From: Syntrophaceae bacterium UBA5744
GTDB taxonomy: Bacteria > Desulfobacterota > Syntrophia > Syntrophales > UBA2192
DNA length: 64,000 bases
NCBI GenBank assembly: GCA_002419215.1
Contig: DIFQ01000059.1
Coordinates: forward strand, 2,220-66,219
Direction of reading: 5' to 3'
Shown piece after piece: positions 1-64,000 of this stretch (the stretch's first letter is position 1; each line of letters starts with the position of its first letter). The notes beneath the pieces are model-generated. The model made no database searches and was not told where the DNA came from. It saw nothing but the letters and a program-made list of their open reading frames with translations. The position numbers were made by a program, and so were the translations under genes.

Positions 1-77
1 AAGGTAAAAGGACAAAGGAAACTTGCGAATCAAGAAACCCTTTTCACCTTTGACCTTTGACCTTTGACCTTTATCCT
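1..77. repeat. heptamer-array hairpin (CCTTTGA units)
   Basis: AAGGTAAAAGGACAAAGG - spacer - (CCTTTGA)x3-4. Left arm may be truncated by the window edge. Confidence 0.7.
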
Positions 78-94
78 ATTGACGGGAGGGCACG

Positions 95-553
95 ATGGAC
101 TTTGCGAGTTTAACGGATGCACTGATCTTTGCCATGGACAAGGAGAAAAAGGCCAACGAGCTCTACCTCCTGTTTCGCGGGAAAGTGAGGGACGACGGGG
201 CTAAAACCCTGCTCAAGGACCTGGCGGACCAGGAGCTGGGTCACTGGAAGATGATCCGGGAAGCCCTTTTGACCGGCACCGTCGAAGGCATCGGCGCGAA
301 GGCGAAGGGGCGAGACATCCAGGTGTCGGACTATATGGTGGAGATCGATCTCACCGCCGACAGCTCCCCGCAGGACATCATGGTCTTTGCCATGCAGATG
401 GAGAAGAAGGCCGTTGACTTCTACAACACTCTGCTTGCCCGGTACAGGGGGACGGAACTCGAGGCCCTCTTCAGCCGGCTCACCCGTGAGGAGATGCGCC
501 ACAAGGAAATCCTGGAAAAGGAATACGAGACGCACTTCGCGCAGTGGATGTAA
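95..553 (+). CDS. ferritin-like / rubrerythrin-family diiron protein
   Basis: 152-aa ORF with GGGAGGG Shine-Dalgarno upstream. Two ExxH motifs (QELGHW, EEMRHKE) in repeated helical halves are typical of rubrerythrin-type four-helix bundles. Confidence 0.85.
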   Translation: MDFASLTDALIFAMDKEKKANELYLLFRGKVRDDGAKTLLKDLADQELGHWKMIREALLTGTVEGIGAKAKGRDIQVSDYMVEIDLTADSSPQDIMVFAMQMEKKAVDFYNTLLARYRGTELEALFSRLTREEMRHKEILEKEYETHFAQWM

Positions 554-558
554 GAGCA

Positions 559-589
559 GGGTATCGGGTATCGGGTCTAGGGTATAGGG
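559..589. repeat. heptamer array (GGGTATC type), single arm
   Basis: GGGTATC GGGTATC GGGTCTA GGGTATA GGG, starting 6 nt after stop codon 553. Confidence 0.85.
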
Positions 590-606
590 CAAAGAAAGGA
601 AAGAAG

Positions 607-834
607 ATGAAGTTCAGAAAATATGTCGAAAAGCTGGTCGGCACGGTCGGCGAGCTGACGGCGGACGACGTCACCTACGTGTTGACCGTTCGTCCCGGCG
701 AGGAGCCGAAACACCCGGCGACGATTCTCAACGTGGATGAGGATTTTGTAACCGTAGAGGTGAAATTCCGGCGGACGAAAGTCCATCGGGTCATCCCCCT
801 CGGGGTTTTCTCCGTCTGCATTTCCGAGGAATGA
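607..834 (+). CDS. hypothetical small protein (75 aa)
   Basis: ATG at 607 follows a purine-rich stretch (AAGAAAGGAAAGAAG). Host-like GC3 codon usage. The longer ORF from 544 would translate the GGGTATC repeat array, so I prefer the internal start. Confidence 0.55.
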   Translation: MKFRKYVEKLVGTVGELTADDVTYVLTVRPGEEPKHPATILNVDEDFVTVEVKFRRTKVHRVIPLGVFSVCISEE

Positions 835-1450
835 TCATAAAAAAACGCGCCTGGTGGTCACCGTCTCGTCGCGGCGATCCACGGCACGTCATGCGGGATG
901 GATTGTACAGGCAGGTTCTATTCGATGATGGCGTAAAGCCAGGCGCCGACGATCGAAAAGCTGACTGTTATCACGAAGAGGTACTCGTACACTGCCATGC
1001 CTCCATGCATTTGCAAAGGCTGACCAGGATACCGTGCCAGACGAATACCCCAGTCAGTTTATGAACTCCCAGTCGGTAGCTTCCTCTATCAATGGTAACC
1101 GCGTTGCCCCCTCCCGGGGTGCTTTCCGGGTTCATCCTGAGGTGCTGAAGCTAGCGGGAGTGTCATTTCCCTTCAGCCTTATTATCGGCCGTCCCGGGCC
1201 CAACCTTTAGCGGGTTGGGAAATGCGATCTTTTTTATGAATGAAGATTTGCCAAAACCGTGCCACTTCCATGGCTTCGGGGATAGCCCAACGGGTGCCGC
1301 GCCTTTTTGCTCTACCGGGATCCCGCAGCAATGTATCGTGAAATCGAGAAGTTAAGAGGATGAGGGCCCATGGATGAAAAAGAACAGGATAAGGACCGGA
1401 CAGGAATTTCTCGATACGCCGATGCAGTCCGCAGCCATCCATCGGCCATC

Positions 1451-1479
1451 TTGACATAAAGGATGAGGTCATTTATCCT
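1451..1479 (+). promoter_or_regulatory. candidate sigma70 promoter of the PA2779-like operon
   Basis: TTGACA (1451-1456), 17-nt spacer, TATCCT (1474-1479), 47 nt upstream of ATG 1526. Confidence 0.4.
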
Positions 1480-1982: not shown

Positions 1983-2071
1983 GAAGATCGGAAGAGAAGA
2001 AGTGAGGAAGAGCGGATAAAAAAAGAATGACATCGACTCCGCTCTTCTGCTCTTCCGTGCTTCCTAACTTC
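1983..2071 (-). repeat. diverged GAAGAG-hairpin element, copy D
   Basis: GAAGATCGGAAGAGAAGAAGTGAGGAAGAGCGGA - AT-rich spacer - TCCGCTCTTCTGCTCTTCCGTGCTTCCTAACTTC. Same orientation as copy A. Confidence 0.75.
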
Positions 2072-2136
2072 TGCCCTTGAGGGTGCCTTGCATCTGGACA
2101 TTTTTGGACAGCCCGGGAAAGGTTTCCCATAGAACA

Positions 2137-7516: not shown

Positions 7517-7542
7517 CACCCGATACCCTATTCCCGATACCC
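7517..7542. repeat. heptamer array (CCCGATA type), single arm
   Basis: CACCCGATACCCTATTCCCGATACCC, in the divergent promoter region between the SGNH hydrolase and SPFH genes. Confidence 0.8.
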
Positions 7543-7611: not shown

Positions 7612-8718
7612 ATGGGGAACGACAATCTCATTTTCCTGGAAGTGCTGGAGTGGTTCGACGAGACGGGGCAGGAACTCGTGCACCGGCTCCCCGAGAAGGG
7701 CTCCGGCGAAATCAAGTACGGCGCCCAGCTCACCGTGCGGGAGAGCCAGTCGGCCGTCTTCTTCTATCAGGGAAAGGCCTATGACGCCTTCGGGCCCGGC
7801 CGTCACACCCTGTCGACGCTCAACATCCCCATCCTGACCAAGGTCCTCAGCTTCCCCTGGGGCATGACAAGCCCCCTGCGGGCGGAGGTCTATTTCGTCA
7901 ACATGAAGCTGTTCCCCAACCTCAAGTGGGGGACGCGCGACCCCGTGGCCTTCCGGGACTCCGAGCTGGGCCTCATCCGCCTGCGGGCCCACGGCGCATA
8001 CAGCATCCAGGTGCTGCAGCCGGCCCTGCTCATCAACCGTCTCGTCGGCACGCAGGGCATGTTCAGCACCCTGGAGATCGAGGACTACCTGAGCGAGGCC
8101 ATCGTATCGAGGTTCAACGACCTCATGGGCGAAACGATCGACACGGTCTTCAAGCTCCCGGGCCGCTACGAGGAGCTGTCGGCGGGACTTGTGAAACGGC
8201 TCCAGGAGGATTTCAGCCACTTCGGCCTGGGGCTGCAGGCCCTTTTCATCAATTCCATCACACCGCCCGCCGATGTGCAGAAGGCCATCGACGACAAGAG
8301 CCGCCTGGCCGTCTTCGACGACGTGAACAAGCTTCTCAAGGTGAAGGCCGCCATGGCTCTCGAGAAGGTCGCCGAGACGAAGTCCGAAGCGGGCGCCGGC
8401 CTCGGTATGGGCCTGGGTCTCATGATGCCCGCCTTCTACTCGGAGTACATGAAGCAGGGCGGAGACACGATGAAATGCCCCGACTGCCAGGGCCCCGTGA
8501 CGGCCGATTCGAAGTTCTGCCCGCGCTGCGGGCACCAGCTTGTCGTCTTGAGCCGCTGCCCCCGATGCGGCAAGAACCTGACGCCCCACGCGAAGTTCTG
8601 CTCGCGCTGCGGCAGCCCGGCCGGCGATGCTCCCGCGCCGAAGACGTGCCCGCAGTGCAAAACCGACAATCTGCCCGGCTCCGTATACTGTAACGGCTGT
8701 GGAAACAAGATCGGATAG
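7612..8718 (+). CDS. SPFH/band-7 domain protein with C-terminal multiple zinc ribbons (YdjI/COG4260-like)
   Basis: GGAGGG SD. N-terminal SPFH-like domain. C terminus carries four CxxC pairs (CPDCQG..CPRCG, CPRCGK..CSRCG, CPQC..CNGCG). Confidence 0.85.
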   Translation: MGNDNLIFLEVLEWFDETGQELVHRLPEKGSGEIKYGAQLTVRESQSAVFFYQGKAYDAFGPGRHTLSTLNIPILTKVLSFPWGMTSPLRAEVYFVNMKLFPNLKWGTRDPVAFRDSELGLIRLRAHGAYSIQVLQPALLINRLVGTQGMFSTLEIEDYLSEAIVSRFNDLMGETIDTVFKLPGRYEELSAGLVKRLQEDFSHFGLGLQALFINSITPPADVQKAIDDKSRLAVFDDVNKLLKVKAAMALEKVAETKSEAGAGLGMGLGLMMPAFYSEYMKQGGDTMKCPDCQGPVTADSKFCPRCGHQLVVLSRCPRCGKNLTPHAKFCSRCGSPAGDAPAPKTCPQCKTDNLPGSVYCNGCGNKIG

Positions 8719-9958
8719 CCGGCGCTGGTTCATCGATTTCCAGTGCCCCCGCTGCGCCGCGGCTGTCAGCCTCGAGGAGACGGAGCGGATCTTCACCTGC
8801 GCCTGGTGCCGCGTGAAGCTCTGCCTCGGCAGCCCCGGCCCCCTGCAGTGCTGCATCCTGCCGCCGTCCGCCACCGGCGAAGACGTCCTGTTTGCTCCCT
8901 ACTGGCGCCTGAAAGCCATGGTGTTCACCTGCACGCCGGGCGCAATCAGGGCGGGCGCCGTCGACATGAGCCACATCGCGCTTCACGCAGAAACGCTCCC
9001 GTGGTCCCTGGGAATCCGTCCTCAACTGGCAAGGCTCCATTTCCTCGATCCCGGCATCCAGGGGACCTTCCTTGCACCCTCCCTTACGATCGGGGAGTCC
9101 GTCACCGGCTACGAGACGAACATGAAACAGCTCGGCGTGTCCCCCTGGGCGGATGCCGTCCTGCACAGGGCCTGGATCGGCGAGCAGACAAGCCTTTTGT
9201 ACTACCCCCTGATGCGGCGCGGCGGACAGATCGTCGATGCCCTGCAGGACAGGATCGTTGAATCCGTCGCCACGTGGGAGGCCCGCGCCACGGCAGAGAG
9301 GCAACCGGACTTCCGGGTACGGTTCTATGCGGCAACCTGCCCCGACTGCGGGAGGGACCTCGACGGCGACCGGGACACCCTCGTGCTGACCTGCCGCAAC
9401 TGCGATCGGGCATGGAAGCGGGGATCGGAGGGTCTCGAGGAGATGCCGGTTTACGTGATCCCCGATAAGACCCGTGAAGACCGCGTCGGCCTTCCCTTCT
9501 GGCGAATCCGGATCGGCGTGGAGGGGTTTGCTCTGAGCACATTCGGCGACTTCGCCCGTTTCTGCAACCTGCCCCGGGCCATCACTCCGGCCATGGAGGA
9601 GGCCCCCTTCTTTTTCTGGGTGCCCGCTTTCAAGGTCAATGCGGAGCTCTACCTGATGCTGATCCGGCGGATAACACTCTTTCAGTGGCGCGGCGACTTC
9701 GAGCAGCGATTGGGTGGTCTCGACTGCCACCCGGTGACGCTGCCTGCCGAGGAAGGCGCTGAAAGCCTCAAAACGGCCATGGCCGACCTTGTCGCCGACA
9801 AGCGGACCTTCATGCCAAAGCTGGGGGATCTGGAGATTGCAATGAAGGAAGCCCTTCTGGTCTACCTGCCGTTCCGGGCAAGAGGCGGGGAACTCATCCA
9901 GCCGCAGATCCCGCTGGGGATCCAGCGGAAGGCGCTTCAGTTCGGATTGAATATCTGA
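8699..9958 (+). CDS. double zinc-ribbon protein of unknown function (YdjG-like?)
   Basis: Two internally repeated modules, each with CPxC..CxxC followed by a (Y/F)WR(L/I) motif. GTG start at 8699 overlaps the SPFH gene end. Followed by a rho-independent terminator. Confidence 0.7.
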   Translation: METRSDSRRWFIDFQCPRCAAAVSLEETERIFTCAWCRVKLCLGSPGPLQCCILPPSATGEDVLFAPYWRLKAMVFTCTPGAIRAGAVDMSHIALHAETLPWSLGIRPQLARLHFLDPGIQGTFLAPSLTIGESVTGYETNMKQLGVSPWADAVLHRAWIGEQTSLLYYPLMRRGGQIVDALQDRIVESVATWEARATAERQPDFRVRFYAATCPDCGRDLDGDRDTLVLTCRNCDRAWKRGSEGLEEMPVYVIPDKTREDRVGLPFWRIRIGVEGFALSTFGDFARFCNLPRAITPAMEEAPFFFWVPAFKVNAELYLMLIRRITLFQWRGDFEQRLGGLDCHPVTLPAEEGAESLKTAMADLVADKRTFMPKLGDLEIAMKEALLVYLPFRARGGELIQPQIPLGIQRKALQFGLNI

Positions 9959-9972
9959 CGGGCGCTGCGCGC

Positions 9973-10129
9973 GGGCTTCAGGCTTCAGGCATCGGGCTTC
10001 AGAAAAAGCAAAGGATCGGGGTGATTTTCCCGATCCTTTTTTTGTCTTGTTGCCTATTCTTCAATCAGACACTTATACACAGTCACTACTTCCTCCTCCC
10101 TGTACCCTATACCCTATACCCTATACCCT
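9973..10129. repeat. composite: (GGCTTCA)n array - terminator - AT-rich spacer - (CCCTATA)n array
   Basis: GGGCTTCAGGCTTCAGGCATCGGGCTTCAG (9973-10002) and CCCTGTACCCTATACCCTATACCCTATACCC (10098-10129). Confidence 0.85.
10011..10043 (+). terminator. rho-independent terminator after the zinc-ribbon gene
   Basis: AAGGATCGGG-gtgatttt-CCCGATCCTT stem followed by TTTTT. Confidence 0.8.
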
Positions 10130-10319
10130 GTCTTGAAATAGGAATGCCCCCCCGCCTCCACTCTCTCCTTGATGCTTCTGATCTCCCTGGTTATCCTCTC
10201 TCCTGCGAAAGAAAATATGAGGTGGGGGGGCATTATTCCTGATGAAGAGAACGGAGGAACAGGGTTTTCCCAAAGACCCCTGGAAACTGTCCAATACCGT
10301 TGCCGGGCAAGTAAGGATC

Positions 10320-10496
10320 TTATTTCGTCAGGAAAAACCTGGAACTTGCGCTCGAATCCCGGGGATCGTCCCCGTCTTTTTCGTCGTCGTTCCCTTCGAT
10401 TTCACCGTCCTCCAAGTCACTGATCCGCTTGAACTCGTCTAGAAATCTAAGCCTCTTCTCCAGGTTGCGAGTTGAGGCCTGGTCATGATGCTTCAT
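10320..10496 (-). CDS. possible small acidic protein (58 aa), below ORF-track cutoff
   Basis: ATG has a GGGAG SD 7 nt upstream. The start overlaps the stop of the 60-aa ORF 10493..10675 as ATGA. Lies in a low-GC non-coding island. No recognisable family. Confidence 0.3.
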   Translation of the reverse strand: MKHHDQASTRNLEKRLRFLDEFKRISDLEDGEIEGNDDEKDGDDPRDSSASSRFFLTK

Positions 10497-10750
10497 AAAA
10501 CGACTCCCAAAACCTGCATTTCCGCACCATCCTCACGCCGGATGTGTCGATCGCGTGCGATGGAGGGTCCCTCTCCCGTCCTCAAGCCCTCTGCGGAAAC
10601 TGTGGCACTTCTTTGTACCGCGAAAGCCTTTAGCCCAGATCGGCCAAAAAGGCAATATCGGATTAAGCCCGGCATAATGTCAGGTAATACCTGATATTAT
10701 TAGCGATCACACTATATTGGGAAGAGGTTTTACGGCCTTGCGGCGAATTA

Positions 10751-10787
10751 AAATTCCCCTCTTTCCCCCTTTTTCAAAGGGGGATTT
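10751..10787. repeat. AAATTCCCCTCTTTCCCCCTTTTTCAAAGGGGGATTT hairpin motif
   Basis: CCCCC-tttttcaaa-GGGGG hairpin. A related copy lies in inverted orientation at 22285-22321 (ATCCCCCCTTTTACAAAGGGGGACAGAGGGGGATTT). Confidence 0.75.
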
Positions 10788-10813
10788 GTTTCCTTGCACC
10801 TTGGTGTTTATAC

Positions 10814-10857
10814 CTTGTGGCTTGAGGCTTGAGGCTTGAGGCTTGTGGCTTGTGGCT
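10814..10857. repeat. heptamer array (CTTGWGG units, 6 copies)
   Basis: CTTGTGG CTTGAGG CTTGAGG CTTGAGG CTTGTGG CTTGTGG, abutting the PAS-LuxR stop codon. Confidence 0.9.
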
Positions 10858-13035
10858 TTAGAACGAAGACAACAGGTAGGACCTGAGATTCGCCTTCTTG
10901 TTCTTGATGCCCAGCTTGATCCGGATGTTGTCCCGATGGAAGTCGACGGCCCGGGCCGACACGCCCAGGATCTCCGCGATGTCCTTGCTCGTCTTCCCTT
11001 CCCGGATCAGGCTCGCCACCTGGATCTCCTTGGGCGTCAGGTTCAGGTACCGCGTCCCCAGGTTGCGAAGGAATGGGGACAGGATGTCCTGCAGGTGGTC
11101 GTCGAGGATCTCCACGTAGGAGGCCTGCTCGACTGTCAGCCTGCTCTTCTTGAGTTTTTCCACGTAGGGAACGACGAGTTTTTTCACGTTGGACAGGAGT
11201 CTTTCCTCCAGCTCGCTCTTGTCCTCTTCACGGTGTTTGAGCAGGACGCGAAGCGCCGTGTTCATCTCTTCGAGGTTTTGGGATTTGTGTTCCAGCTCTT
11301 CCTCGCGTTTCCTGAGGGCCTCCTCCATCCGGCGCCTCTCCGTGATATCCCGGATCGACTCGATGGCCCCGATGAGATTCCCCGCCGAGTCCCTCAACAC
11401 GCTCGCCGTCCCGTGCAGGTAGACATCGCCCCCCTTGAGGGCCGGCATGTAAGCCTCCCCGATCAGAACCGTTTCCCCGCGTTCCGTCGAGACGTAGGTT
11501 GCCTCGTACCGCCTGTCGGGTTTCAGGGCAAGGTCGATGAGGATGGGCCTGCGCTCGCCGTAGAAGGGGATGGCATGCTCATAGTTCCCCTTTCCGATCA
11601 TCTCCGCAGCCGCCACCCCCGTCATTTCCTCGATGGCGCGGTTCCAGGCGATGACCTTCCCGTCGCCGTCGATGACGAAGGTGGCATCGGGCAGGAAATC
11701 GATCACGTCCGCAAGAAACCGTTCAGATTCCTTGAGCCTTTCCTCGGCCTGCTTTCGCACCGTGATGTCCATGAGGGAGGCCACGCTTTTTTTCGTTCCC
11801 GGGATCATGGAGACCGTCATGGTAACGCTGCGGACCCGGCCGCTGCGATCCCGGAAACGGACCTCGTAGATGCGGGGCACCGTCTCCGGGTCGATCCGGC
11901 GCCGGGTGTGGAACTCCTTCATCTGCTCCAGGTCCTCCCCGTGGATGAATTCGGTCCAGCGCCGCTTTCCCTCAATCTCATCCTTGGAAAATCCCGATTC
12001 CTTTTCGAATTCGGCGTTCACCATGGAGATGGTCATGTCCTCCTCGACGATCATCGTGGCTGTGCCCGTCGTCTCGAAGATCGCCCGGTATCGGGCCTCC
12101 GAATCAGAAACGGCCTGCTGGGCCCTGCGGCGTTCCGTGATGTCGTCGACCATCTCGATGGCCGCCGTCACGCGCCCGTCCCGGTCCATCACGGGGGACG
12201 AGACGATCCGGTAGTGCCTCACGCCGTCGCCGGAAGGCGTCTCGGTGACGGACTCGTGGACCTGCCCGTCCCGGAGTGTTTTCGCCGTCGGGCACCAGGG
12301 GCAGATTTCGTGCCTGGGCGGGACGTTAAAAGCTCGGTGACAGACCGGTTTTTGCGCCACGTCGATCCCGGGGAACCAATTCCGCATTTGCCGGTTCAGG
12401 GCGAGGATCTCCATGCTCGGGCTGATCAGCGAGATGCCGATCCCGACGTTGTCGATCACGCTGCGGTACCGGTCCTCAGAGGCCGCCAGGGCCTCTTCGA
12501 CCCGCTTCCGGTCGCCGATTTCTTCCATGAACTGCCGGTTCTTCATCTGCAGCTCCGCCGTCCGGATCTCCACCTCGTGCTCGAGCCGGTCCAGGGCGTG
12601 CTTCAGGTCGCTCTCGGTCCTCTTCGTCTCGGTGATGTCCCGGATCAGGGCCTGCTTGGAGAGGGTGCCGTCGGGATTGCGGATGGGCGCATTGACAATG
12701 GAGTACCATCGCCGGTCCTTCGGGCTCTGGATCTCCCATTGCACGGTTTCGCCGGCGAAGACACGCTCGTTGATGCACCAGGGACAGACCTCATCACGGT
12801 CGTGGAGCGCCGCGTAGCAGAACTCCCCCGTGGCATCGCGGCCCGTCCGCGCGATGAGGAGCTCGTTCATGTATTCGATGCGGTAGTCCCGGGAACAGAC
12901 ATAGATGAAACCGTCGAATGCATCGATCGTGGCGCGAAGCCGCGCCTCGGTCACAGCCGGACTCATGCCTTCGCCGTAATGCATGCGCGTTTCGGAGGGG
13001 GGTCTTTTTCCTTTTTTCGCTTCCGTCTTCGCCAC
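10858..13035 (-). CDS. multi-PAS domain LuxR/FixJ-family transcriptional regulator
   Basis: At least four PAS-like modules separated by coiled coils. C-terminal HTH LTPKEIQVASLIREGKTSKDIAEILGVSARAVDFHRDNIRIKLG. Confidence 0.9.
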   Translation of the reverse strand: MAKTEAKKGKRPPSETRMHYGEGMSPAVTEARLRATIDAFDGFIYVCSRDYRIEYMNELLIARTGRDATGEFCYAALHDRDEVCPWCINERVFAGETVQWEIQSPKDRRWYSIVNAPIRNPDGTLSKQALIRDITETKRTESDLKHALDRLEHEVEIRTAELQMKNRQFMEEIGDRKRVEEALAASEDRYRSVIDNVGIGISLISPSMEILALNRQMRNWFPGIDVAQKPVCHRAFNVPPRHEICPWCPTAKTLRDGQVHESVTETPSGDGVRHYRIVSSPVMDRDGRVTAAIEMVDDITERRRAQQAVSDSEARYRAIFETTGTATMIVEEDMTISMVNAEFEKESGFSKDEIEGKRRWTEFIHGEDLEQMKEFHTRRRIDPETVPRIYEVRFRDRSGRVRSVTMTVSMIPGTKKSVASLMDITVRKQAEERLKESERFLADVIDFLPDATFVIDGDGKVIAWNRAIEEMTGVAAAEMIGKGNYEHAIPFYGERRPILIDLALKPDRRYEATYVSTERGETVLIGEAYMPALKGGDVYLHGTASVLRDSAGNLIGAIESIRDITERRRMEEALRKREEELEHKSQNLEEMNTALRVLLKHREEDKSELEERLLSNVKKLVVPYVEKLKKSRLTVEQASYVEILDDHLQDILSPFLRNLGTRYLNLTPKEIQVASLIREGKTSKDIAEILGVSARAVDFHRDNIRIKLGIKNKKANLRSYLLSSF

Positions 13036-13045: not shown

Positions 13046-13324
13046 TTAATGCACGGAGTCCGGGAAGTTCGCCTCGCCCGCTTTCAACTCCGACGCATCG
13101 GTCCCTTCGGCACGGTACTGCGTCAATTCCCAGCGATCGTCGCCGCGACCGTAGCGCAGCACATACACCCCGCCGTCGTCGGCGCGCACCTTGAAGTAAT
13201 CGTGGTCCTCTCCGTACCAGCGATCCAGCAGATCCACCACCTCCCGCTTTTTCGAACCGATATGAAACCGCAGGGGCCTCTCGCAGGCCCGGTAACCGTC
13301 ATAGCTCTCGACACGGATCTTCAT
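13046..13324 (-). CDS. hypothetical small protein (92 aa)
   Basis: Host-like codon usage. Ends 10 nt before the PAS-LuxR start, so probably co-transcribed. No family recognised. Confidence 0.6.
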   Translation of the reverse strand: MKIRVESYDGYRACERPLRFHIGSKKREVVDLLDRWYGEDHDYFKVRADDGGVYVLRYGRGDDRWELTQYRAEGTDASELKAGEANFPDSVH

Positions 13325-13340: not shown

Positions 13341-13438
13341 CATGGCTAACGGCATATGGCTCAGGGCTTGTGGCAATAGGGAATGACTTCTCGTTTTCGA
13401 AATCACCTTGTGCCTTGTTCCTGCGCCGTAAGCCTGTC
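13341..13438. repeat. paired same-strand arrays (GGCT/CTTGTG type) around an AT-rich spacer
   Basis: CATGGCTAACGGCATATGGCTCAGGGCTTGTGGC - AATAGGGAATGACTTCTCGTTTTCGAAATCA - CCTTGTGCCTTGTTCCTGCGCCGTAAGCCTGTC. Confidence 0.7.
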
Positions 13439-13516: not shown

Positions 13517-13551
13517 AAAAGCCGCCCCTCGTTCCGAGCGGGCGGCTTTTT
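13517..13551 (-). terminator. rho-independent terminator after ltaE (bidirectional shape)
   Basis: AAAAGCCGCCC-12 nt loop-GGGCGGCTTTT, with an A-run and a T-run on either side. Confidence 0.75.
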
Positions 13552-14632: not shown

Positions 14633-14787
14633 AGCGTTCCTCCAGCGATTTCAACCGGTTGCATTCGTCCTTTCCCGTAGCCGGTCTTGCAGTTTTCCCG
14701 GTACGGGCCAGGCTCCGGGTCCTGTATCACATCCCGAATGAAAATTCCGCACTTTGATGCATCATCCTCAAGCAGGGTTTCCGCATG

Positions 14788-18047: not shown

Positions 18048-18149
18048 AAGATCGGAAGAGCGGAAGCTCGGAAGAGCGGGCGGCAAATGGAATGAACGCG
18101 TCGGACCGTTTCTGATTATTCTCTCATCTGCCCTTCCTGACTTCCAGTC
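18048..18149 (-). repeat. diverged GAAGAG-hairpin element, copy E
   Basis: AAGATCGGAAGAGCGGAAGCTCGGAAGAGCGGG - spacer containing AATGGAATGAACG - CTCTCATCTGCCCTTCCTGACTTCCAGTC. Confidence 0.65.
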
Positions 18150-19413: not shown

Positions 19414-19415
19414 GA

Positions 19416-19499
19416 AGTGCCTGAGTGTCTAAGTGTCTGAGTGCAAAAGAAGATTTCATCCTTCACTGAAGCACTTATCCACTTCTTCACTTAGACACT
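19416..19499. repeat. array hairpin (GAGTGYCT units) between convergent genes
   Basis: AGTGCCTGAGTGTCTAAGTGTCTGAGTGC - AAAAGAAGATTTCATCCTTCACTGAA - GCACTTATCCACTTCTTCACTTAGACACT. Confidence 0.85.
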
Positions 19500-43954: not shown

Positions 43955-44031
43955 CTTCACGGCCCTTGATGCGCCCCCGGTCACCAGCCTTGCTTACGTC
44001 TCCCGGGCTGGTCAAAAAGGTGCAAACGCCA

Positions 44032-44188: not shown

Positions 44189-44278
44189 CCCCCGGTCAAC
44201 CGCCCATTTTCCTCCTCAGGCTGGTCAAAAGGGGTTGGCTGCAAGGGGTGCGAGCACGAAGGCCAAGGAAGAGGATCC

Positions 44279-44353
44279 TTCACCCTCACCCCGGCCCTCT
44301 CCCCTCGAGGGAGAGGGAGCCTGCAGGGTGAATTTCCCCCGGAGAGGGGGAAA
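44279..44353. repeat. TTCACCCTCACCCC..CTCTCCCCTCGAGGGAGAGGG nested hairpin repeat plus a second small hairpin
   Basis: Outer stem TTCACCCT/AGGGTGAA, inner stem CCCTCTCCCCTC/GAGGGAGAGGG, then TTTCCCCC-ggagag-GGGGAAA. Related copies lie at 54357-54408 and, inverted and diverged, at 39888-39962. Confidence 0.8.
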
Positions 44354-44797: not shown

Positions 44798-44946
44798 ATC
44801 AATACACCCCCCCCGGGAAATGATTGGTCGTCAAATCAGGAAAAAGAACGTTACTCGATCCCTATCACAGCTCGAGGAAGAAGAGAAGGGTTCAGAATGA
44901 AGCGGGCGTGATATAATGATAATTATTGCGCTGCCGGCAGGAGAGA

Positions 44947-45840: not shown

Positions 45841-45933
45841 ATGCACAGCCCTCAGCCAAACACCTCCATTTTTTCATACATCAAAGGAGATTCGGGGTCG
45901 AGAGGTAAACCCTTTCCGGGGGCTCTGAGCATA

Positions 45934-45956
45934 GGGTATCGGGTAAAGGGATCAGG
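45934..45956. repeat. short GGGTATC-type array
   Basis: GGGTATC GGGTAAA GGGATCA GG, between the convergent EamA and protease genes. Confidence 0.7.
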
Positions 45957-47083: not shown

Positions 47084-47284
47084 CCGGGCCTCCGCCTAAA
47101 TACCGTTTTGGATGGAACCCTCCCGCAGCGGGCGGCTCCCTTATCTCTTATCGGCAGAGTTCGACGGAAATTGAGGGAAAAGCAATCGGTTGGAGGGAAA
47201 CCACTACGCGGCGGGCATCAGGAACCCGAAGCCCGCAGACGACCCCCCTTTGGCTCCCACCTTATGACTCAGGTGGATCCTGAC

Positions 47285-47320
47285 GGGATAGACTGAATAG
47301 ACGGAACAGACCGAATAGAC
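47285..47320. repeat. nonamer array (NGAAYAGAC x4)
   Basis: GGGATAGAC TGAATAGAC GGAACAGAC CGAATAGAC, ending 9 nt before the stop of protease gene 47329..48636. Confidence 0.9.
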
Positions 47321-47328
47321 TCTTGATT

Positions 47329-48636
47329 TTAGCGCTGCGCCCTCAGCTTGGCCGCCTGGCGGAAATATTCCTGGGCAATATCCTGGCGGCCCCGCTTCTG
47401 CTGGATGATGCCCATCTGCTCGAGACAGACCGCCATGCCCTGCGCCTCCCCCAGGCCCCGGAAGATCTGGAGGGCTCTTTCGAATTGGCCGAAAGCGATT
47501 TCCTGGCGATCGAAGCTCATATTGTGCCTCGCCTTGTCGAGAAGGTCGGCCGCTTCGCCGAGCTGCTGTTCGCGCCACCGCCTGCGCTCCTCCTGGACCC
47601 TTGCCTGCTGTTCCAGGACCCTGCGCCGTTCCTCTTCCATCCTGCGCTGCACATCGCCCGGCTGCGGCACCGGATCGCCTACCACCACCCCTTGCCCGGC
47701 GTAAAGGACGGGAAGGCTCGCCACGGGGAATGGAGAGGCTGGGGTCAGGCCCGAGATGATTTCCCCCGGCACGGCGATCCCGATGTGGGAGGCCTGACGG
47801 TGGACGCGCGTCGCGATGCCGACAACCTCACCCTTCGTGTTCACAACGGGGCTCCCGCTCGAGCCCGGGGAGATAGGCGCCGAGATCTGGATCAGCCGCT
47901 TGCCGCCGGCCACCGGGCGAATCGCGGAAACGAGGCCGTCGGTGATGGTCTGCGCCAGTTGGGGGTGGTAGGGAGTCCCGATGACCACGATCTTGTCGCC
48001 CACCTGCGGAAGGGAAGGGGTCATTTTGAGGGTCCGGATGCTGTCAATGGGCAGGACAGCGGACAGGATGACGACATCGTTCTCCGCGTCGGAGGCGGCG
48101 ATTCCCCTGATGTCCATCGTCGCGCCGCTTTTCGTCTTGATCTTGAGTGACGACGCCCCCTCGACGACATGATAATTGGTTGCCACCATCCCCCAGGGAT
48201 CGATGAAAAACCCCGTCCCGTGACCGCGTATCTGCCCGGATTCATTGATGTTGTATACCACGACGACGGAAGGGCTGACCCTCTCATAGATCTCCTGCAC
48301 GCTCAGGGCACCCTCCCCTGCCGTCGTCTGCCTCAAAGGGGCGCCGGGGGTTGCGTCGTTGGGGGTGATGACGGTCTGCACGGGCACTTCGGCATCGGGA
48401 AGGTCCGCCTTGCCTGCCGAGACGGCTGCCGTGCCCGCCTTGCCTCTGTCCGCAAACCCCATCCAGGCGGCAGCGCCGGAGAGACCCACGATGATCGCCA
48501 GCAGGACAGCCATGCCGCCGGCGCTGAGCGCCTCCTTGAGCTTGTTGAAGAAAAGGACAACGAATAACAGCAGGATCAGGATGAGGCCGATGAGGATTTT
48601 CAGCATCTTCTGCGCTCCGGTTTCAATGGCAGGCAA
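47329..48636 (-). CDS. membrane-anchored trypsin-like (S1) serine protease with C-terminal coiled-coil/TPR-like tail
   Basis: Two N-terminal TM helices. Triad contexts VATNYHVV, ENDVVIL, PGSSGSPVV. Arg/Glu-rich coiled coil and a TPR-like end. Confidence 0.8.
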   Translation of the reverse strand: MPAIETGAQKMLKILIGLILILLLFVVLFFNKLKEALSAGGMAVLLAIIVGLSGAAAWMGFADRGKAGTAAVSAGKADLPDAEVPVQTVITPNDATPGAPLRQTTAGEGALSVQEIYERVSPSVVVVYNINESGQIRGHGTGFFIDPWGMVATNYHVVEGASSLKIKTKSGATMDIRGIAASDAENDVVILSAVLPIDSIRTLKMTPSLPQVGDKIVVIGTPYHPQLAQTITDGLVSAIRPVAGGKRLIQISAPISPGSSGSPVVNTKGEVVGIATRVHRQASHIGIAVPGEIISGLTPASPFPVASLPVLYAGQGVVVGDPVPQPGDVQRRMEEERRRVLEQQARVQEERRRWREQQLGEAADLLDKARHNMSFDRQEIAFGQFERALQIFRGLGEAQGMAVCLEQMGIIQQKRGRQDIAQEYFRQAAKLRAQR

Positions 48637-48859: not shown

Positions 48860-48920
48860 GGTCTGTTCTGTCTATTCGATCTGCTCCTTCACTTCCTTCA
48901 CTGTTGCCACTTCTGTCACT
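48860..48920. repeat. inverted nonamer array (GTCTRTTCN x2) plus (NNNNTCACT)x4 array
   Basis: GGTCTGTTCTGTCTATTCG is the reverse complement of the GAAYAGAC units at 47285-47320. It is followed by CTCCTTCACT TCCTTCACT GTTGCCACT TCTGTCACT. Confidence 0.85.
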
Positions 48921-48934
48921 GCCGCAATGCGGCA

Positions 48935-52328: not shown

Positions 52329-52435
52329 GGGTATCGGGTATCGGGGCTCAGGTATCGGGATGGAATAGGATTTTGTCTATAAATCATCTTCTTCCTTCCC
52401 TATACCCTATACCCTATACCCTATACCCTATACCC
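52329..52435. repeat. GGGTATC/CCCTATA heptamer hairpin between two minus-strand genes
   Basis: GGGTATCGGGTATCGGGGCTCAGGTATCGGG - ATGGAATAGGATTTTGTCTATAAATCATCTTCTTCCTTC - (CCCTATA)x5 CCC. The spacer is homologous to that of 34718-34831. Confidence 0.9.
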
Positions 52436-52457
52436 GGTGCCCTGAAGCAGGCTTTGC

Positions 52458-52832: not shown

Positions 52833-52948
52833 GATTTCTCCTTGCAGTTCGGTCCGGAAACGTACGTGATGCCGCTCAATAGCACATTCCCTGCCCCGGG
52901 ACAATCATTTGGTTGCGCGTCAGGGCCGGTGACATATCCGGAGGTAAG

Positions 52949-53058
52949 CCCCCGGTTCAAGATTGCGAAGTGAGGAAGTTAGGAAGAGCAGAAGATCGGA
53001 GTGGATGTCCGGATCATTTCTTTATCCGCTCATCCTCGCTTCCGCTCTTCCGATCTTC
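52949..53058 (+). repeat. diverged GAAGAG-hairpin element, copy C
   Basis: CCCCCGGTTCAAGATTGCGAAGTGAGGAAGTTAGGAAGAGCAGAAGATCGGAGTGGATG..CCGCTCTTCCGATCTTC aligns with copy B at roughly 80% by eye. Confidence 0.75.
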
Positions 53059-53102
53059 GTGAATTCGACGTCCCCGCGGCTCGCGACGGGGAAAGACGGT
53101 TT

Positions 53103-53140
53103 CCCTATACCCTACACCCTCGTCCCTGGTCCCTAGTCCC
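53103..53140. repeat. heptamer array (CCCTNNN x6)
   Basis: CCCTATA CCCTACA CCCTCGT CCCTGGT CCCTAGT CCC. Confidence 0.85.
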
Positions 53141-53256
53141 TTTCTTCTACAATGGCCGCAGGCCTGCGCTGCTTCGCGCTCGCCATCGTCTTTGAGACTC
53201 GAATCATCGTCATGGCGCGGCAGCGCCAAAGGGCGTCGAGATGGGTGCCGCCCTTC

Positions 53257-54356: not shown

Positions 54357-54408
54357 TTCACCCTCACCCCGACCCTCTCCCCTCAAGGGAGAGGGAGACT
54401 AAGGTGAT
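54357..54408. repeat. TTCACCCTCACCCC..CTCTCCCCTCAAGGGAGAGGG hairpin repeat, second copy
   Basis: TTCACCCTCACCCCGACCCTCTCCCCTCAAGGGAGAGGGAGACTAAGGTGA, just downstream of the HD-domain gene. Confidence 0.8.
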
Positions 54409-61944: not shown

Positions 61945-62062
61945 CGCCTCCTGTCCTCCCTTCGTGTTGAAGCATCAACGTCCGTTCTATCTGCCACAAA
62001 CCGCGGGCAAAAGGAAGGGGCGGACAAAGGCGGTTCGTTGGCTCCAATGGTTCAATCCAATG

Positions 62063-62089
62063 AAAAAGCCGCCCCTGTCGTGGGCGGCT
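62063..62089 (-). terminator. rho-independent terminator after the secreted-protein gene
   Basis: AGCCGCCC-ctgtcgt-GGGCGGCT preceded by AAAAA on the plus strand, which is a T-run on the minus strand. Confidence 0.75.
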
Positions 62090-62169
62090 CCTTCAAGCTC
62101 GCAGCCGGAAATCAATCGCAGACGTTCCGCTTCTCCGACCTTCTTACCCTCAAACCCTCTTACGCTCTG

Positions 62170-62643
62170 TCACTTGGATACCTCCTGCCAGCCCGCTGCG
62201 GGTGTGTACTTGATCCAGGGGCCGTTGAGTGTCTTCACCCTGGCGTAATCCTTCGTCAGCTCGAAATTCGTCTTGAGCATCCCGGTGCCGTCGTCGGCGC
62301 CGCGCTTCTTGTAGGTGAACCACTGGTGCTTGCCGTAATCGTAGAGGGACACCTCGTGGAGGCCCGCGGCCAGCGCAAAGTTGTCATTGACCATGTTGAC
62401 GAACCCCTCCACCTTGCCACGGGTGATGGTCGTCATCTTGTGGAATTGCCACTTTTTCGCGGAGCCGTCGTAGACCGAGGCTCCCAGGAAGCCGTACTTG
62501 AGGGTCATGTTCATGGACTTGCTCTGAATCGGCTTGAAGGCGGGAGTGCCCACATGGGCCGGGTCCTGCTGCGCATGGCCGGCGAGAGCGCCGAAAGTCA
62601 TCACGGCGCTCACGAGAACAAGGACAAAAAGACTTTTCTTCAT
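62170..62643 (-). CDS. hypothetical secreted protein
   Basis: Signal peptide (LFVLVLVSAVMTFGALAGHA). Followed by a terminator at 62063-62089. No family recognised. Confidence 0.7.
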   Translation of the reverse strand: MKKSLFVLVLVSAVMTFGALAGHAQQDPAHVGTPAFKPIQSKSMNMTLKYGFLGASVYDGSAKKWQFHKMTTITRGKVEGFVNMVNDNFALAAGLHEVSLYDYGKHQWFTYKKRGADDGTGMLKTNFELTKDYARVKTLNGPWIKYTPAAGWQEVSK

Positions 62644-62714
62644 GAAATACCTCCTGCTGGGTTCTGGGTGATGAGGGGAAAGTTGCAAGGGCCGTGCCCG
62701 GCGGAAAGCACCCG

Positions 62715-63560
62715 TCAGCCGAAGGCCCGGGGGGTGATGGCCTCGTACAGGACTTCCCGGTCGAACCCGGGAGGCGTCTCGCCTTTTTTGGCATACTGGT
62801 ACAGGGCCGCCTGGAAGATTCCCTGCAGGGCGGCCTGCACGACGGAGAGCGCGATGACATAGATCACCGCGACGGCGACAAATCCGATCGCCAGAAACCC
62901 CTTGCCGCTCGCCACCCCCGCGGCGATCAACAGAACGGCCGGCAGCGACAGCGCAAAAAAGATGAGCCCGAAGCTGAAGCCGCCGATCAGCTCCTCGCCC
63001 CAGGTTTTCTTGATCAGGCGCGCCGACTCCCGGAAGGCCTCCATGGGACCCTTGCGCTCGTTGACGAGGATCGGGATGACGAGGTAGCTCGTGATGCCCC
63101 AGGCCATGCCGAGCAGGCCCGCGATGATGCGACCGATCAGTTTCGAGCGCTCTTCGATCACCCGGAGGATCATGCCGACGCTGGCCGACACGAGGGCCCA
63201 GCCGGCGATCTCGAAGACACGCTCACCCGATGCCTGCAGGCCGTCGCCCACCGTGGGGTTGCCGCCCCGCATCCGGATGGTGGCGCAGGCCACGATGGCC
63301 GTGTTAAAGAAGATGACGATGAAATAGTTGATGAAATAGAACGCGAAGAGAACCACCAGGTTTCCCACCGTTCCATTGTGGCGGGCAATCCGCTGGACGG
63401 TGTCGATGCCGCCCAGGGCGAAGATGGGAACGACGAAGGAAGCCATGATCAGGATCAGCGCAATGCCCGAAATCGCAGGGAACACCAGGATCTCCTTGTC
63501 CTGCCTGAGCACGTCCCAGGAGGCCCTCATGATCTGCCACGACCGCTCGAACTTTTCCAC
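62715..63560 (-). CDS. hypothetical polytopic membrane protein (DUF6159-like)
   Basis: N terminus MEKFERSWQIMRASWDVLRQDKEIL and about six TM helices resemble DUF6159 proteins. Confidence 0.72.
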   Translation of the reverse strand: MEKFERSWQIMRASWDVLRQDKEILVFPAISGIALILIMASFVVPIFALGGIDTVQRIARHNGTVGNLVVLFAFYFINYFIVIFFNTAIVACATIRMRGGNPTVGDGLQASGERVFEIAGWALVSASVGMILRVIEERSKLIGRIIAGLLGMAWGITSYLVIPILVNERKGPMEAFRESARLIKKTWGEELIGGFSFGLIFFALSLPAVLLIAAGVASGKGFLAIGFVAVAVIYVIALSVVQAALQGIFQAALYQYAKKGETPPGFDREVLYEAITPRAFG

Positions 63561-63609
63561 TCTTCGCCCTTTCTGCTGCTTGTCTTCTTCTGTTGGCTGT
63601 CGGCTTTCT

Positions 63610-64000
63610 TTATCCCCTGCTCATGACCTGCGCCTTGACCTTCTCCACCCGGGCGATGATACCGGGCACATCGGCGGCGACCTCCTCGTGGCTGTACAGG
63701 AGGTCCTCCAGGTGGACATAGGCGCGCAAGTCGTCGGGACAGAGGTCCACGGCGGCCATGAACGCCCTCGCCGCCTCGTCGTAGCGGCCTTGTCCCTGGA
63801 GCGCGAGTCCCAGGTTTCTCAAGGCGTTGTGGCGCCGGGGGGCAATGTCGAAGGCGGCCCGGCAGTAGGATTCGGCCTCGCGGTGGCGCCCGCAGCGAAT
63901 CAGCGCGTGGCCGAGGTTGTTGTAGATGGAATACCAGGTGTCGTTTCGCGAAGGCGTCAGGTGGATCGCTTCCGAATAAGCGGCCGCGGCGGCCGCGTAA
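63610..64000 (-). CDS. TPR-repeat protein (C-terminal part; gene runs off the window)
   Basis: The reading frame stays open to position 64000. TPR-like repeats (NLGLALQGQGRYDEAARAF..). Confidence 0.7.
   Translation of the reverse strand, partial: YAAAAAAYSEAIHLTPSRNDTWYSIYNNLGHALIRCGRHREAESYCRAAFDIAPRRHNALRNLGLALQGQGRYDEAARAFMAAVDLCPDDLRAYVHLEDLLYSHEEVAADVPGIIARVEKVKAQVMSRG

Follow-up and report, generated by a model that had tools for sequence, protein, structure and literature searches.

Tandem heptamer-class repeats at gene ends in a 64-kb genomic stretch of a Syntrophales bacterium: kept positions and rapid turnover of repeat units

A stretch of 64,000 nucleotides from Syntrophaceae bacterium UBA5744 (order Syntrophales, phylum Desulfobacterota; contig DIFQ01000059.1, positions 2,220 to 66,219; hereafter the window) was analyzed for short tandem arrays of 7- to 9-nt units, which a first-pass annotation made from the letters alone had reported at its gene boundaries. 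The arrays, each with three to seven copies of its unit, were securely identified as heptamer-class long simple sequence repeats (LSSRs), comprising a sub-family of GGGNNNN (G3N4) units of the type described by Rehm et al. (2015), pairs of the type found in Geobacter, and one dispersed family. On balance, we infer that these are probably repeats that were remodeled by slippage and kept for the structure of 3' ends and intercistronic regions, with the 8-mers also dispersing. An origin by slippage appears well supported by comparison with relatives.

The window has a GC content of 61%. A gene map obtained with our own codon-usage caller contained 67 genes covering 82% of the sequence, which left 18% (11.6 kb) as intergenic DNA. 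Arrays were detected with Tandem Repeats Finder (TRF) and, for weaker cases, by eye. The array sites listed in the first-pass annotation all proved real, those at 7517, 13341, 22334, 27198, 45933, and 48860 being weaker arrays recognized by eye. For arrays of period 7 or 8 and at least 20 nt, 25 were found in intergenic DNA and none in coding DNA, against 0.26 +/- 0.50 (maximum 2) in 100 dinucleotide-preserving shuffles of the intergenic segments. This amounts to an excess of about 100-fold over the shuffles, with intergenic DNA carrying about one array every 460 nt. The comparison with shuffled controls had been named beforehand, and both the excess and the avoidance of confident coding sequences bore out the initial description.

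Period 7 was the most frequent: the intergenic counts by TRF were 15 for period 7, 11 for period 8, two for period 9, and four for period 10. Coding DNA contained no period-7 array and one period-8 array of 19 nt and 2.4 copies. About 12 of the roughly 28 arrays were built from G3N4 units, and the others were GG- or G-periodic 7-, 8-, or 9-mers. Within each unit a conserved core was joined to a variable remainder, as in GGG+N4, GAAG+N4, AGTG+N4, and CACTCA+N2. The initial claim that arrays mark almost every gene boundary was overstated. Among the 53 intergenic regions of at least 25 nt, TRF arrays occurred in 16 (11 of 33 tandem, four of 10 convergent, and one of 10 divergent regions), and the inclusion of weaker arrays seen by eye raised this number to about 20.

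The arrays showed a marked preference for gene ends and for one strand. Eleven window arrays lay within 15 nt of a stop codon and none within 15 nt of a start codon, in agreement with the proximity to stops noted at first. Eight GTDB representatives (loci L001-L008), which are syntenic with the window over about 20 kb, supplied orthologous intergenic regions. When these were included, the arrays within 15 nt of a gene end, counted over partly orthologous sites, comprised 17 post-stop arrays that were G-rich on the sense strand, two post-stop arrays that were C-rich on the sense strand, and one array at a start. The autocorrelation of G in the 50 nt after stops was raised at lag 7 (1.21) and lag 14 (1.17), likewise in the relatives, and no peak at these lags was found before starts in the window or the relatives. 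Eighteen neighboring pairs of arrays with a clear skew were drawn from this clade and from other loci; on the strand being read, the G-rich array preceded in 15 of them and the C-rich array in three.

A stop-proximal array was usually followed by an A/G-rich linker and then by a hairpin. Thirteen such arrays were considered in the window (the 11 found by TRF and those at 22334 and 27198), and in 11 of them a terminator, a REP-like hairpin, or the array's own inverted arm was found within about 100 nt downstream; the array at 558-589 had none, and the case of 37011-37050 was doubtful. The hairpins took three forms, namely a canonical terminator (10010-10039 and 29440-29468), a REP-like (repetitive extragenic palindromic) CCCCCTTT...AAAGGGGG palindrome (22288-22305), or the array itself joined to an inverted C-rich array across an AT-rich spacer (19415/19472, 24441/24479, 34716/34800, 52329/52398, and the dispersed 8-mer family described below). 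The paired arrays were predicted to fold with free energies (dG) of -30 to -55 kcal/mol and z-scores of -4 to -7, with heterogeneous stems of 75-125 nt. Their spacers measured 14-95 nt, with a mean GC content of 0.35 versus 0.54 for all intergenic DNA, so that the AT-rich spacers of the first description were recovered as well.

Canonical G-quadruplex (G4) motifs numbered 12 in intergenic DNA versus four in the 4.5-fold larger coding DNA. Nine of the 12 were GGGNNNN heptamer arrays with four to seven G-tracts (559, 7519, 10098, 22334, 29489, 34718, 34799, 52398, and 53103). Within arrays, invariant phases were more frequent among G-bearing phases than among the others (53 of 61 versus 47 of 87; Fisher p = 3e-5), and the relatives behaved similarly (p = 0.002). 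A clustering of unit mismatches in particular phases was borderline only (p ~0.05).

The comparison of orthologous spacers, which had been proposed at the outset, revealed unit turnover at kept sites. In relatives at 75-94% identity, arrays were kept at the same sites, and the unit, the copy number (in whole units), or the entire module differed; whole modules differed even at 93-94% coding identity. Seven metagenome contigs recovered through the conserved terminator hairpin at 29440-29468 extended the comparison at that site. After the stop of the 152-aa gene (29531-29989), GGGNNNN units numbered six in the window, five in L089, four in L002, seven in L094, four to five in L003, L008, and L086, three in L095, and about zero in L005. 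In the window, L089, L002, and L094, the spacer-proximal units and the flanks of this site were conserved, and the length differences were multiples of 7 nt. On the opposite side of the hairpin, the convergent gene was followed by three to five NNNNAGG units in nearly all species, with only the GG conserved. The stop codon of the 152-aa gene was located inside the GGGNNNN array in L001 (13170-13207), L008 (~2500-2540), and L086/L093 (e.g., GGGTCTAG); the reading frame thus runs into the array, and array growth alters annotated C-termini.

Similarly, a post-stop G-array was kept at three further sites (after 22373, 27234, and 34833) in four to six species, where the units included GGGTATC, GGGTTCA, GGGACCG, and GGTAACA. 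Over the four orthologous sites together, a post-stop G-array with differing units was present in four to 10 species. At one of the three further sites, occupied by GGGTATC in the window, L002 carried an unrelated inverted pair (AGTGGCT.../...TCACTGA). L001 gained one 8-nt unit at the 32893 site, and an array of L094 consisted of blocks of identical units (GGTCCAG x3, then GGTACAG x3). The two arms of a pair changed together: at one site of the dispersed family, both arms in L094 had different 8-mers that were still complementary. Together these patterns bear the signature of slippage, in which sites stay occupied and their content turns over rapidly.

These observations can be joined in the following explanation. 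Arrays would arise and be remodeled in place by replication slippage, through gains and losses of whole units, and in inverted pairs copying between the arms may contribute. MutS-type mismatch repair is inefficient on loops of 7-9 nt. A step of 7 or 8 nt shifts the frame, and arrays therefore cannot survive inside reading frames, so that they build up in the least constrained transcribed DNA, between a stop and the terminator or next gene. There, post-stop arrays would be kept within the 3'-end or intercistronic structure of the gene. Their stem-loops could act in pausing, partial termination, or 3'-end protection as REP elements do, and as has likewise been proposed for cyanobacterial STRR heptamers. 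The GGGNNNN family could additionally form G4s, and the 8-mer family, at least, would additionally disperse in the form of a palindromic element of about 200 nt. A role in 3' structure is favored because of the fixed position and strand, the partnership with hairpins, the persistence through sequence turnover, and the presence of arrays between cistrons of a probable operon.

Several observations weigh against a structural role. The gene map came from a crude caller, and the statistics were drawn from the 64 kb of the window and about 100 kb from relatives, orthologous in part. The solitary arrays at 558, 37011, 62138, and 32893 had no predicted fold. No T-run followed the 3' arm of the array hairpins, which are therefore not canonical intrinsic terminators, and the stems had no stability advantage on the sense over the antisense strand (the sense strand was favored in three of eight), which gives no indication that the mRNA fold in particular is under selection. 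Arrays were found inside a probable operon (between gene 37057-37593 and dctM, and between gene 34833-35612 and pxpB), where strong termination is unlikely. In addition, three stop-proximal or nearby arrays (10814, 32893, and 47282) broke the orientation rule, and the non-GGG units are incapable of forming three-tetrad G4s. Purely neutral slippage where constraint is lowest also explains most of the positional data.

That last point leads to the main rival, which we regard as possible though on the unlikely side: the arrays may be functionless products of slippage wherever constraint is lowest, namely after stops, with the G-sense bias arising from a mutational asymmetry linked to transcription, such as R-loop-prone G-rich untranslated RNA favoring expansion. 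It agrees with the very fast turnover, with modules replaced outright between genomes 93-94% identical in coding DNA, with the stems that have no advantage on the sense strand, and with the lack of arrays in constrained coding DNA and their scarcity in divergent promoter regions (one of 10). The stop codons within arrays in L001, L008, and L086 look like the outcome of array growth into the end of the gene, and Rehm et al. (PMC4692102) could assign no function to comparable repeats. However, it accounts less readily for post-stop arrays that persist at the same sites in four to 10 species despite complete sequence change, including the non-homologous replacement in L002, for the preferential invariance of G phases, for paired arms that stay complementary, and for the order of the 15 G-first pairs among 18, although self-perpetuating slippage together with inter-arm copying could mimic all four kinds of evidence. 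A broader proposal, to which we give a low probability, holds that post-stop G-tract arrays and their C-rich mirrors form a general, sequence-flexible, and direction-specific insulation of gene ends common to Desulfobacterota, Geobacter, Xanthomonas, and heterocystous cyanobacteria. The arrays would be read single-stranded, as an RNA or DNA G4 or an R-loop pause, or as a Rho-proof sense versus a Rho-loading antisense strand, and they would be renewed by slippage and inter-arm copying, with the function conserved and the sequence not. A more specific version, which is improbable, assigns the arrays to Rho: G-rich, C-poor arrays on the mRNA strand would keep Rho off untranslated intercistronic RNA, and their C-rich complements would load Rho (as rut, Rho utilization, sites) on antisense or read-through transcripts, giving a direction-specific insulation that backs the central hairpin terminator. 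The order of G-array, AT-rich spacer or hairpin, and C-array, which is alike on both strands (15 versus 3), fits this idea. So do the convergent genes that each have a sense G-array around a common terminator with non-complementary arms (29400-29527 and 9974-10129), the G-poor stretches of 40-60 nt formed by C-arrays and pyrimidine linkers, the arrays inside the probable operon, where anti-polarity would be useful, and the scarcity of canonical terminators. Yet rut sites are generally described with a C spacing of about 12 nt rather than 7, many C-arrays could pair with the complementary G-array upstream and would then be masked by the hairpin, and the antisense strand of some arrays is not poor in G (37011-37050).

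Two further explanations concern binding proteins and mobility. A periodicity-reading protein, which had been suggested initially, found no support; such a protein could be a nucleoid-associated or regulatory one (IHF/HU), or a multimeric RNA-binding protein that reads a core every 7-8 nt. The conserved core with a variable remainder in each unit and the paired opposite-strand sites at variable distance, as in G. metallireducens, point in this direction, and a precedent would be HutP, which recognizes UAG-N4 triplets repeated with a period of 7 nt. Against it stand at least eight unrelated cores in one 64-kb window, with others at the same sites in relatives, which would call for many readers or none, and the geometry of B-DNA, on which contiguous 7-bp units would rotate by about 240 degrees each and fall off one face, unfavorably for cooperative duplex binding. 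We consider it very improbable. Least probable of all, and hardly to be expected, is that every array is an end or core of MITE-like (miniature inverted-repeat transposable element) or REP-like elements transposing into terminator-proximal DNA. The dispersed family of about five copies in 64 kb, two of them ~95% identical, with one more in L002, the 22-nt spacer core common to two GGGTATC pairs, and the wholesale module replacement between close relatives speak for mobility, but most arrays share only the unit, and at orthologous sites the flanks are conserved and the differences are in the number of whole units. Relatives without the 8-mer core of the dispersed family keep its outer flanks, with no clean empty site and no target-site duplication, and no transposase or RAYT was found among the 40 of 67 predicted window proteins covered by the Pfam scan. 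Because position, strand, and hairpin partner are kept through this turnover, the hypotheses are narrowed to 3'-end structure or insulation versus neutral slippage.

The dispersed family, termed family B, is built on GAAGATCG/GAAGAGCR/GAAGTGAG 8-mers (also GAAGAGCG), which occupy the center of a ~200-nt palindromic element. Copies were located at ~1920-2120, 25420-25625, 43990-44210 (reversed), and 52900-53062, with a half copy at 18048. The copies at 25400-25640 and 43980-44220 were ~95% identical by eye over ~190 nt including non-array flanks. L002 had one copy at the orthologous site; in L001, L003, and L094, the outer flanks of the site were kept and the interior was different, and neither a clean empty site nor a target-site duplication was recognized in these three. 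Family B alone combined near-identical copies with a palindromic layout, as in MITEs. The GGGTATC pairs at 34716-34830 and 52329-52443 shared a spacer core of 22 nt (34758-34779; 52362). In BLAST terms, family B was an alignable multicopy family, the GGGTATC pairs were so in part, and most other arrays shared only the unit or nothing. The initial statement that the pattern was not the spread of one mobile sequence was therefore only partly right: most arrays change in place, but the family B 8-mers are dispersed and two GGGTATC pairs have a homologous spacer. A loop core that seemed common to pairs with different units (AAGATTTCATC, at 19450 and 34763) was not above chance when one mismatch was allowed.

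Family B also contained an exact 13-mer, AGATCGGAAGAGC, at 18049-18061, 25484-25496, 44129-44141(-), and 53044-53056(-), and at 14661-14673(-) of L002. Its four occurrences in the window compared with 0.11 expected when one mismatch was allowed. This 13-mer is the common start of Illumina TruSeq adapters. Adapter contamination was rejected as a source of family B, as the 13-mer continues into the repeat rather than into adapter, lies within the conserved element of ~200 nt, and recurs in L002. Adapter trimmers may nevertheless clip such reads and leave assembly gaps. Separate REP-like palindromes were also present in the window. The palindrome TCACCCTCACCCCGNCCCTCTCCCCTCRAGGGAGAGGGA occurred at 44280-44318 and 54358-54396 in copies 93% identical, and CCCCCTTTnnCAAAGGGGG, flanked by AAATCCCCC/GGGGGATTT, occurred at 10765-10782 and 22288-22305; the latter also stood immediately behind heptamer arrays at a number of orthologous positions in L001, L003, L004, and L094.

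Other identities for the arrays were considered and set aside. An assembly artefact was ruled out, as arrays recur at orthologous sites in assemblies made independently by separate projects (L001-L008 and L081-L095) and also occur in the finished genome of the G. metallireducens isolate. Phase-variation contingency loci are unlikely, as the arrays follow stops rather than lying at promoters or 5' gene ends, and their neighbors are ordinary metabolism and transport genes. CRISPR was excluded by units that are too short and contiguous. Ordinary intrinsic terminators were rejected because the array hairpins have no U-tracts, and the canonical terminators are separate features between arrays. A terminator consensus scan gave few convincing candidates and a weak enrichment (31 versus 18.5, 23 versus 16.4, and 16 versus 16.7, observed versus shuffles). 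An Rfam scan of the window at gathering thresholds gave zero matches, a scan with relaxed thresholds, made on the family B and GGGTATC regions, returned only sub-threshold matches to miRNA precursors, which are generic hairpins, and a search of the window for tRNA and tmRNA genes found none.

Table 1. Tandem arrays in the 64,000-nt window. Hairpin dG values are in kcal/mol; TRF, found by Tandem Repeats Finder.
Feature	Position	Strand	Context
Weak purine-rich 7-mers AAGGTAA/AAGGACA/AAGGAAA (1-21), 20-nt spacer, CCTTTGA x4.4 (42-72)	1-72	+	Upstream of gene 95-553; hairpin dG -17.9, z -3.2
Solitary GGGTATC-type array, 5 G-tracts	558-589	+	4 nt past stop of rubrerythrin-like gene 95-553; ends 17 nt ahead of next gene start (607); no hairpin
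Family B copy: GAAGATCG/GAAGAGAA/GAAGTGAG/GAAGAGCG 8-mers, A-rich loop, inverted CTCTTC-type arm	1983-2074	+	Hairpin dG -38.2
GGGTATC GGGAATA GGGTATC GGG, 4 G-tracts	7517-7542	-	Divergent intergenic region; by eye
GGCTTCA x4.1 (9974-10002), terminator hairpin (10010-10039), CCCTATA x4.6 (10098-10129)	9974-10129	+	TRF; GGCTTCA array begins 15 nt after stop of gene 8699-9958; hairpin is a canonical bidirectional terminator
CTTGWGG x6.4	10814-10858	+	TRF; abuts stop of PAS-LuxR gene 10858-13035(-), C-rich on its sense strand (orientation-rule exception)
Weak inverted pair: GG-periodic 7-mers (13341-13381), CC-periodic 7-mers (13404-13438)	13341-13438	-	Between terminator (~13520-13545) and start of gene 13046-13324(-); hairpin dG -36.7, z -4.7
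Half family B copy: AAGATCGG AAGAGCGG AAGCTCGG AAGAGCGG	18048-18079	+	TRF
Inverted 8-mer pair: RAGTGYCT x3.6 (19415-19443), 28-nt AT-rich spacer, CACTTNNN x2.8 (19472-19493)	19415-19493	+	Between convergent genes, 1 nt past stop 19413; hairpin dG -30.5, z -4.6
GGGTATC GGGTGTA GGGTCTC GGGGTTA GGG	22334-22364	-	By eye; 8 nt past stop of gene 22373-23641(-); then purine linker and REP-like hairpin 22288-22305
Inverted 7-mer pair: AGGACCG-type x3.4 (24441-24464), 14-nt A-rich loop, CCTCGAT-type x4.4 (24479-24509)	24441-24509	+	5' leader of LexA-like gene 24528-25115, downstream of TTGACA...TATAAA promoter; hairpin dG -30.9
Family B copy, 8-mer arms (TRF 25482-25515)	25482-25576	+	Core of ~200-nt palindromic element ~25420-25625
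Short arrays CAGACAG x2, then GGGTATA GGGTGAA	27198-27233	-	Directly past stop of gene 27234-28082(-)
Convergent 3'-end module: GACAGGC x4.7 (+, 29400-29432), terminator hairpin (29440-29468), GGGTATY x6 (-, 29488-29527)	29400-29527	+/-	GACAGGC array 1 nt after stop 29398, GGGTATY array 3 nt after stop 29531; own sense-strand G-array per convergent gene, units non-complementary; hairpin is a conserved bidirectional terminator
AGTGNCTG x4.5	32893-32928	+	Reads CACTCAGN on sense strand of flanking - genes; orientation-rule exception
Inverted GGGTATY (34716-34756) / RATACCC (34800-34830) pair, 43-nt AT-rich spacer	34716-34830	-	2 nt past stop of gene 34833-35612, ahead of pxpB (33946-34650); hairpin dG -54.7, z -6.7
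Solitary 8-mer array GGAAGACC/GGAAGCGC x4-5	37011-37050	-	6 nt past stop of gene 37057-37593, ahead of dctM; no hairpin
Family B copy, reverse orientation (TRF 44110-44143)	44049-44143	-	Hairpin dG -43.5
Short array AGGGTATC GGGTAAA GGGATCA GG	45933-45956	+	By eye; ~90 nt after stop of gene 44926-45840
9-mer array GACNGRAYA x3.8	47282-47321	+	7 nt from stop of peptidase gene 47329-48636(-)
GGTCTGTTC TGTCTATTC GATCTGCTC (inverse of 47282 units; 48860-48886), then NNNNTCACT 9-mers	48860-48922	+	
Inverted GGGTATC x4.4 (52329-52359) / CCCTATA x5.4-6 (52398-52443) pair, 38-nt AT-rich spacer	52329-52443	-	Between two - strand genes; hairpin dG -50.8, z -5.6
Family B copy (TRF 53025-53058)	52965-53058	-	Followed by heptamer array 53102-53141
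CCCTATA CCCTACA CCCTCGT CCCTGGT CCCTAGT CCC	53102-53141		TRF; 6 G-tracts on - strand
Solitary 8-mer array, AAGAGGGT-type	62138-62168	-	1 nt past stop of gene 62170-62643(-); terminator hairpin ~50 nt further on

The genes surrounding the arrays encode ordinary metabolism and transport functions. They include an Mla-type lipid ABC system, components of a TRAP (tripartite ATP-independent periplasmic) transporter, 5-oxoprolinase subunits, an acyl-CoA dehydrogenase, a LexA-like repressor, and a VapBC pair; 40 of the 67 predicted window proteins were scanned against Pfam. A PAS histidine kinase/receiver protein of 901 aa (29997-32702, -) had orthologues 91-92% identical in metagenome-assembled genomes of Syntrophaceae and Syntrophales. 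On the minus strand, the region 32996-38698 is a probable operon, which would encode a TRAP transporter and a 5-oxoprolinase, with the following order: 37703-38698, a hairpin, 37057-37593, the 8-mer array, dctM, 34833-35612, the GGGTATY hairpin pair, pxpB, and pxpC. Pfam matches were obtained for DctM (dctM) and for CT_C_D and CT_A_B (pxpB and pxpC), gene 37703-38698 is presumably dctP and gene 34833-35612 pxpA, and gene 37057-37593 is assumed from its position to be the small TRAP component dctQ. It offers a good natural test case for a possible effect of arrays on differential expression inside an operon.

Several other small features were noted in the window. The LexA-like (Peptidase_S24) gene 24528-25115(+) is preceded by a near-consensus promoter (TTGACA...TATAAA, within 24402-24527) that overlaps a perfect palindrome, TAGAACGATCGTTCTA (GAAC-N4-GTTC), kept in L001-L005; the palindrome is likely an SOS box. 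The array pair in the leader of the same gene was near-identical in L001 and L002 and missing from L003. Upstream of the VapB-VapC (PIN) toxin-antitoxin pair at 25741-26305(+), a block of ATATATGCAT x3.2 with period 10 (25689-25721) is probably its operator, and it was not present at the orthologous place in L001. A perfect inverted repeat of 24 nt, GGGGTCAGGCCTGATTATTGACAT ... ATGTCAATAATCAGGCCTGACCCC, with a 33-nt center (27109-27189), lies at a site that in relatives is occupied by heptamer arrays or a REP-like hairpin, and it may be a small palindromic element of another kind or a site bound by a protein. The gene 47329-48636(-), for a trypsin-like peptidase with a TPR repeat, is flanked as a whole by inverted 9-mer arrays ~1.5 kb apart (GAAYAGACN and its complement; 47282-47321 and 48860-48886), and L001 carries an array (84-117) at the site orthologous to 47282-47321, at the 3' end of the peptidase gene. 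Additionally, no confident gene was called in the 899 nt between the convergent genes at 9959-10857. This region is bounded by same-strand GGCTTCA and GGCTTGW arrays and holds the CCCTATA array, a terminator, and REP-like palindromes; it may contain a decayed gene, an unrecognized small gene, or an RNA.

The STRR heptamers of heterocystous cyanobacteria, the analogue named in the first-pass annotation, made a fair comparison. They form intergenic hairpins, for example between hupS and hupL, and roles in transcript stability, translational coupling, and termination have been proposed for them. Their units include CCCCAGT, TTGGTCA, and CAACAGT, none of which was tandem in the window. Both systems consist of tandem intergenic 7-bp units capable of forming hairpins, but the cyanobacteria have few genome-wide families, whereas the Syntrophales host of the window has many units. 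REP elements stabilize upstream segments of mRNA and give partial termination. Like REPs and BIMEs (bacterial interspersed mosaic elements), the array hairpins are intergenic palindromes after stops and between cistrons. Unlike them, the window stems of 75-125 nt have arms of tandem arrays, whereas REPs are imperfect palindromes of 20-40 nt that belong to one or a few families and are mobilized by RAYT.

The array trait is patchy across Desulfobacterota: among 80 loci from this phylum and others, most had no array of period 7 or 8. Many paired arrays of 7, 8, or 16 nt with other units were observed in L070 (Ca. Desulfatibia vada), L021, L033, L064, L020, and L035. The units in these unrelated Desulfobacterota contigs included GGTTGCA/CTGTAAC (up to 12 copies), GGTTCAA/AACCTTG, and TGGAATAT/CATTCCAA, and the order was a G-rich arm, a spacer, and a C-rich arm, as in the window.

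Heptamer-class repeats have been known for more than 30 years, since STRR, and were surveyed in 2007 and 2015. The LSSRs of Mrazek et al. (2007), as summarized in PMC4679880 and PMC4692102, have units of 5-11 nt with heptanucleotides the commonest; they are patchily distributed among taxa and typical of large, GC-rich genomes of non-pathogens. In the same summaries, slippage is proposed as their origin, and coding DNA excludes units whose length is not a multiple of three. The window arrays agree with this class, being tandem 5-11-nt units above chance, dominated by period 7, and confined to non-coding DNA. In contrast, the module of stop codon, G-array, and hairpin and the inverted pairing, both seen in the window, do not figure in the survey as summarized there. 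In marine Beggiatoaceae, TAACTGA direct repeats of a single unit are found just upstream of starts and are almost never inverted (MacGregor, 2015; PMC4679880). They resemble the window arrays as intergenic heptamers of two to six copies with a suspected post-transcriptional action, but the window arrays are post-stop, have many units, and are often inverted, and TAACTGA is not repeated in the window.

The initial suggestion that the pattern was new for this kind of GC-rich Gram-negative anaerobe did not hold, as heptamer repeats have been published for Xanthomonas and Nostoc (PMC4692102) and for the related anaerobe G. metallireducens (PMC2700814). Literature searches yielded no account of such repeats in sulfate reducers or Syntrophales and no later functional study building on the 2015 report (PMC4692102). 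In Xanthomonas (GGGAATC) and Nostoc (GGGGAYT), heptamers of the GGGNATC type are intergenic, with four units preferred (Rehm et al., 2015; PMC4692102). They form G4s in vitro, are transcribed, and include inverted copies that can form stem-loops. They lie within 50 bp of stops on the coding strand and seldom occur between divergent genes; two species share the occupied sites, at which length and sequence vary, and no function was assignable (PMC4692102). The GGGTATC of the window fits GGGNATC with four to seven G-tracts in a subset of nine arrays, and the post-stop sense-G position, the rarity in divergent regions (one of 10), and the persistence of sites with variation were also found in the window. 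The exact Xanthomonas and Nostoc units, like the specific units of the other published systems, were never tandem in the window; GGGTATC and GGGTATA were. The two sets differ in that the window host is a Desulfobacterota anaerobe, that most stop-proximal window arrays are followed by a hairpin, and that the 8- and 9-mer and GG-periodic arrays of the window are not G3N4.

A matching layout was found in G. metallireducens (Aklujkar et al., 2009; PMC2700814). This genome carries Gmet_H4, a set of 49 elements of four GGGACCG heptamers, and three classes of "global regulator binding sites" with 24, 21, and eight pairs of three to five tandem 8-, 9-, and 7-mers, respectively, on opposite strands at variable distance; binding by IHF/HU was the authors' guess. 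Its classes are BLAST-alignable families with fixed units, and some H4 copies lie in genes, whereas the window units are heterogeneous and none lies in a coding sequence. Gmet_H402 reads TAA-GGGACCG GGGACCA GGACCG GGGACCA-ACA-ATG in the supplementary alignment of PMC2700814, and the same layout of stop, heptamers, and start is found at 554-606 of the window. The post-stop unit itself recurs in relatives of the window (TAG GGACCGG GGACAAG in L001 and GGGACCG GGACCAG in L003; also in L008). The two systems also share paired opposite-strand arrays with the purine-rich arm first, and both hosts are anaerobes of the former Deltaproteobacteria.

The window extends this class to a GC-rich, anaerobic lineage in which arrays are very dense. 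It also adds a comparative picture in which position, strand, and partner hairpin are kept across species, and units, copy number, and modules turn over even at 93-94% identity. Such arrays break alignments of intergenic DNA and can extend or truncate annotated C-termini. The same elements are carried by culturable organisms, namely G. metallireducens and Xanthomonas.

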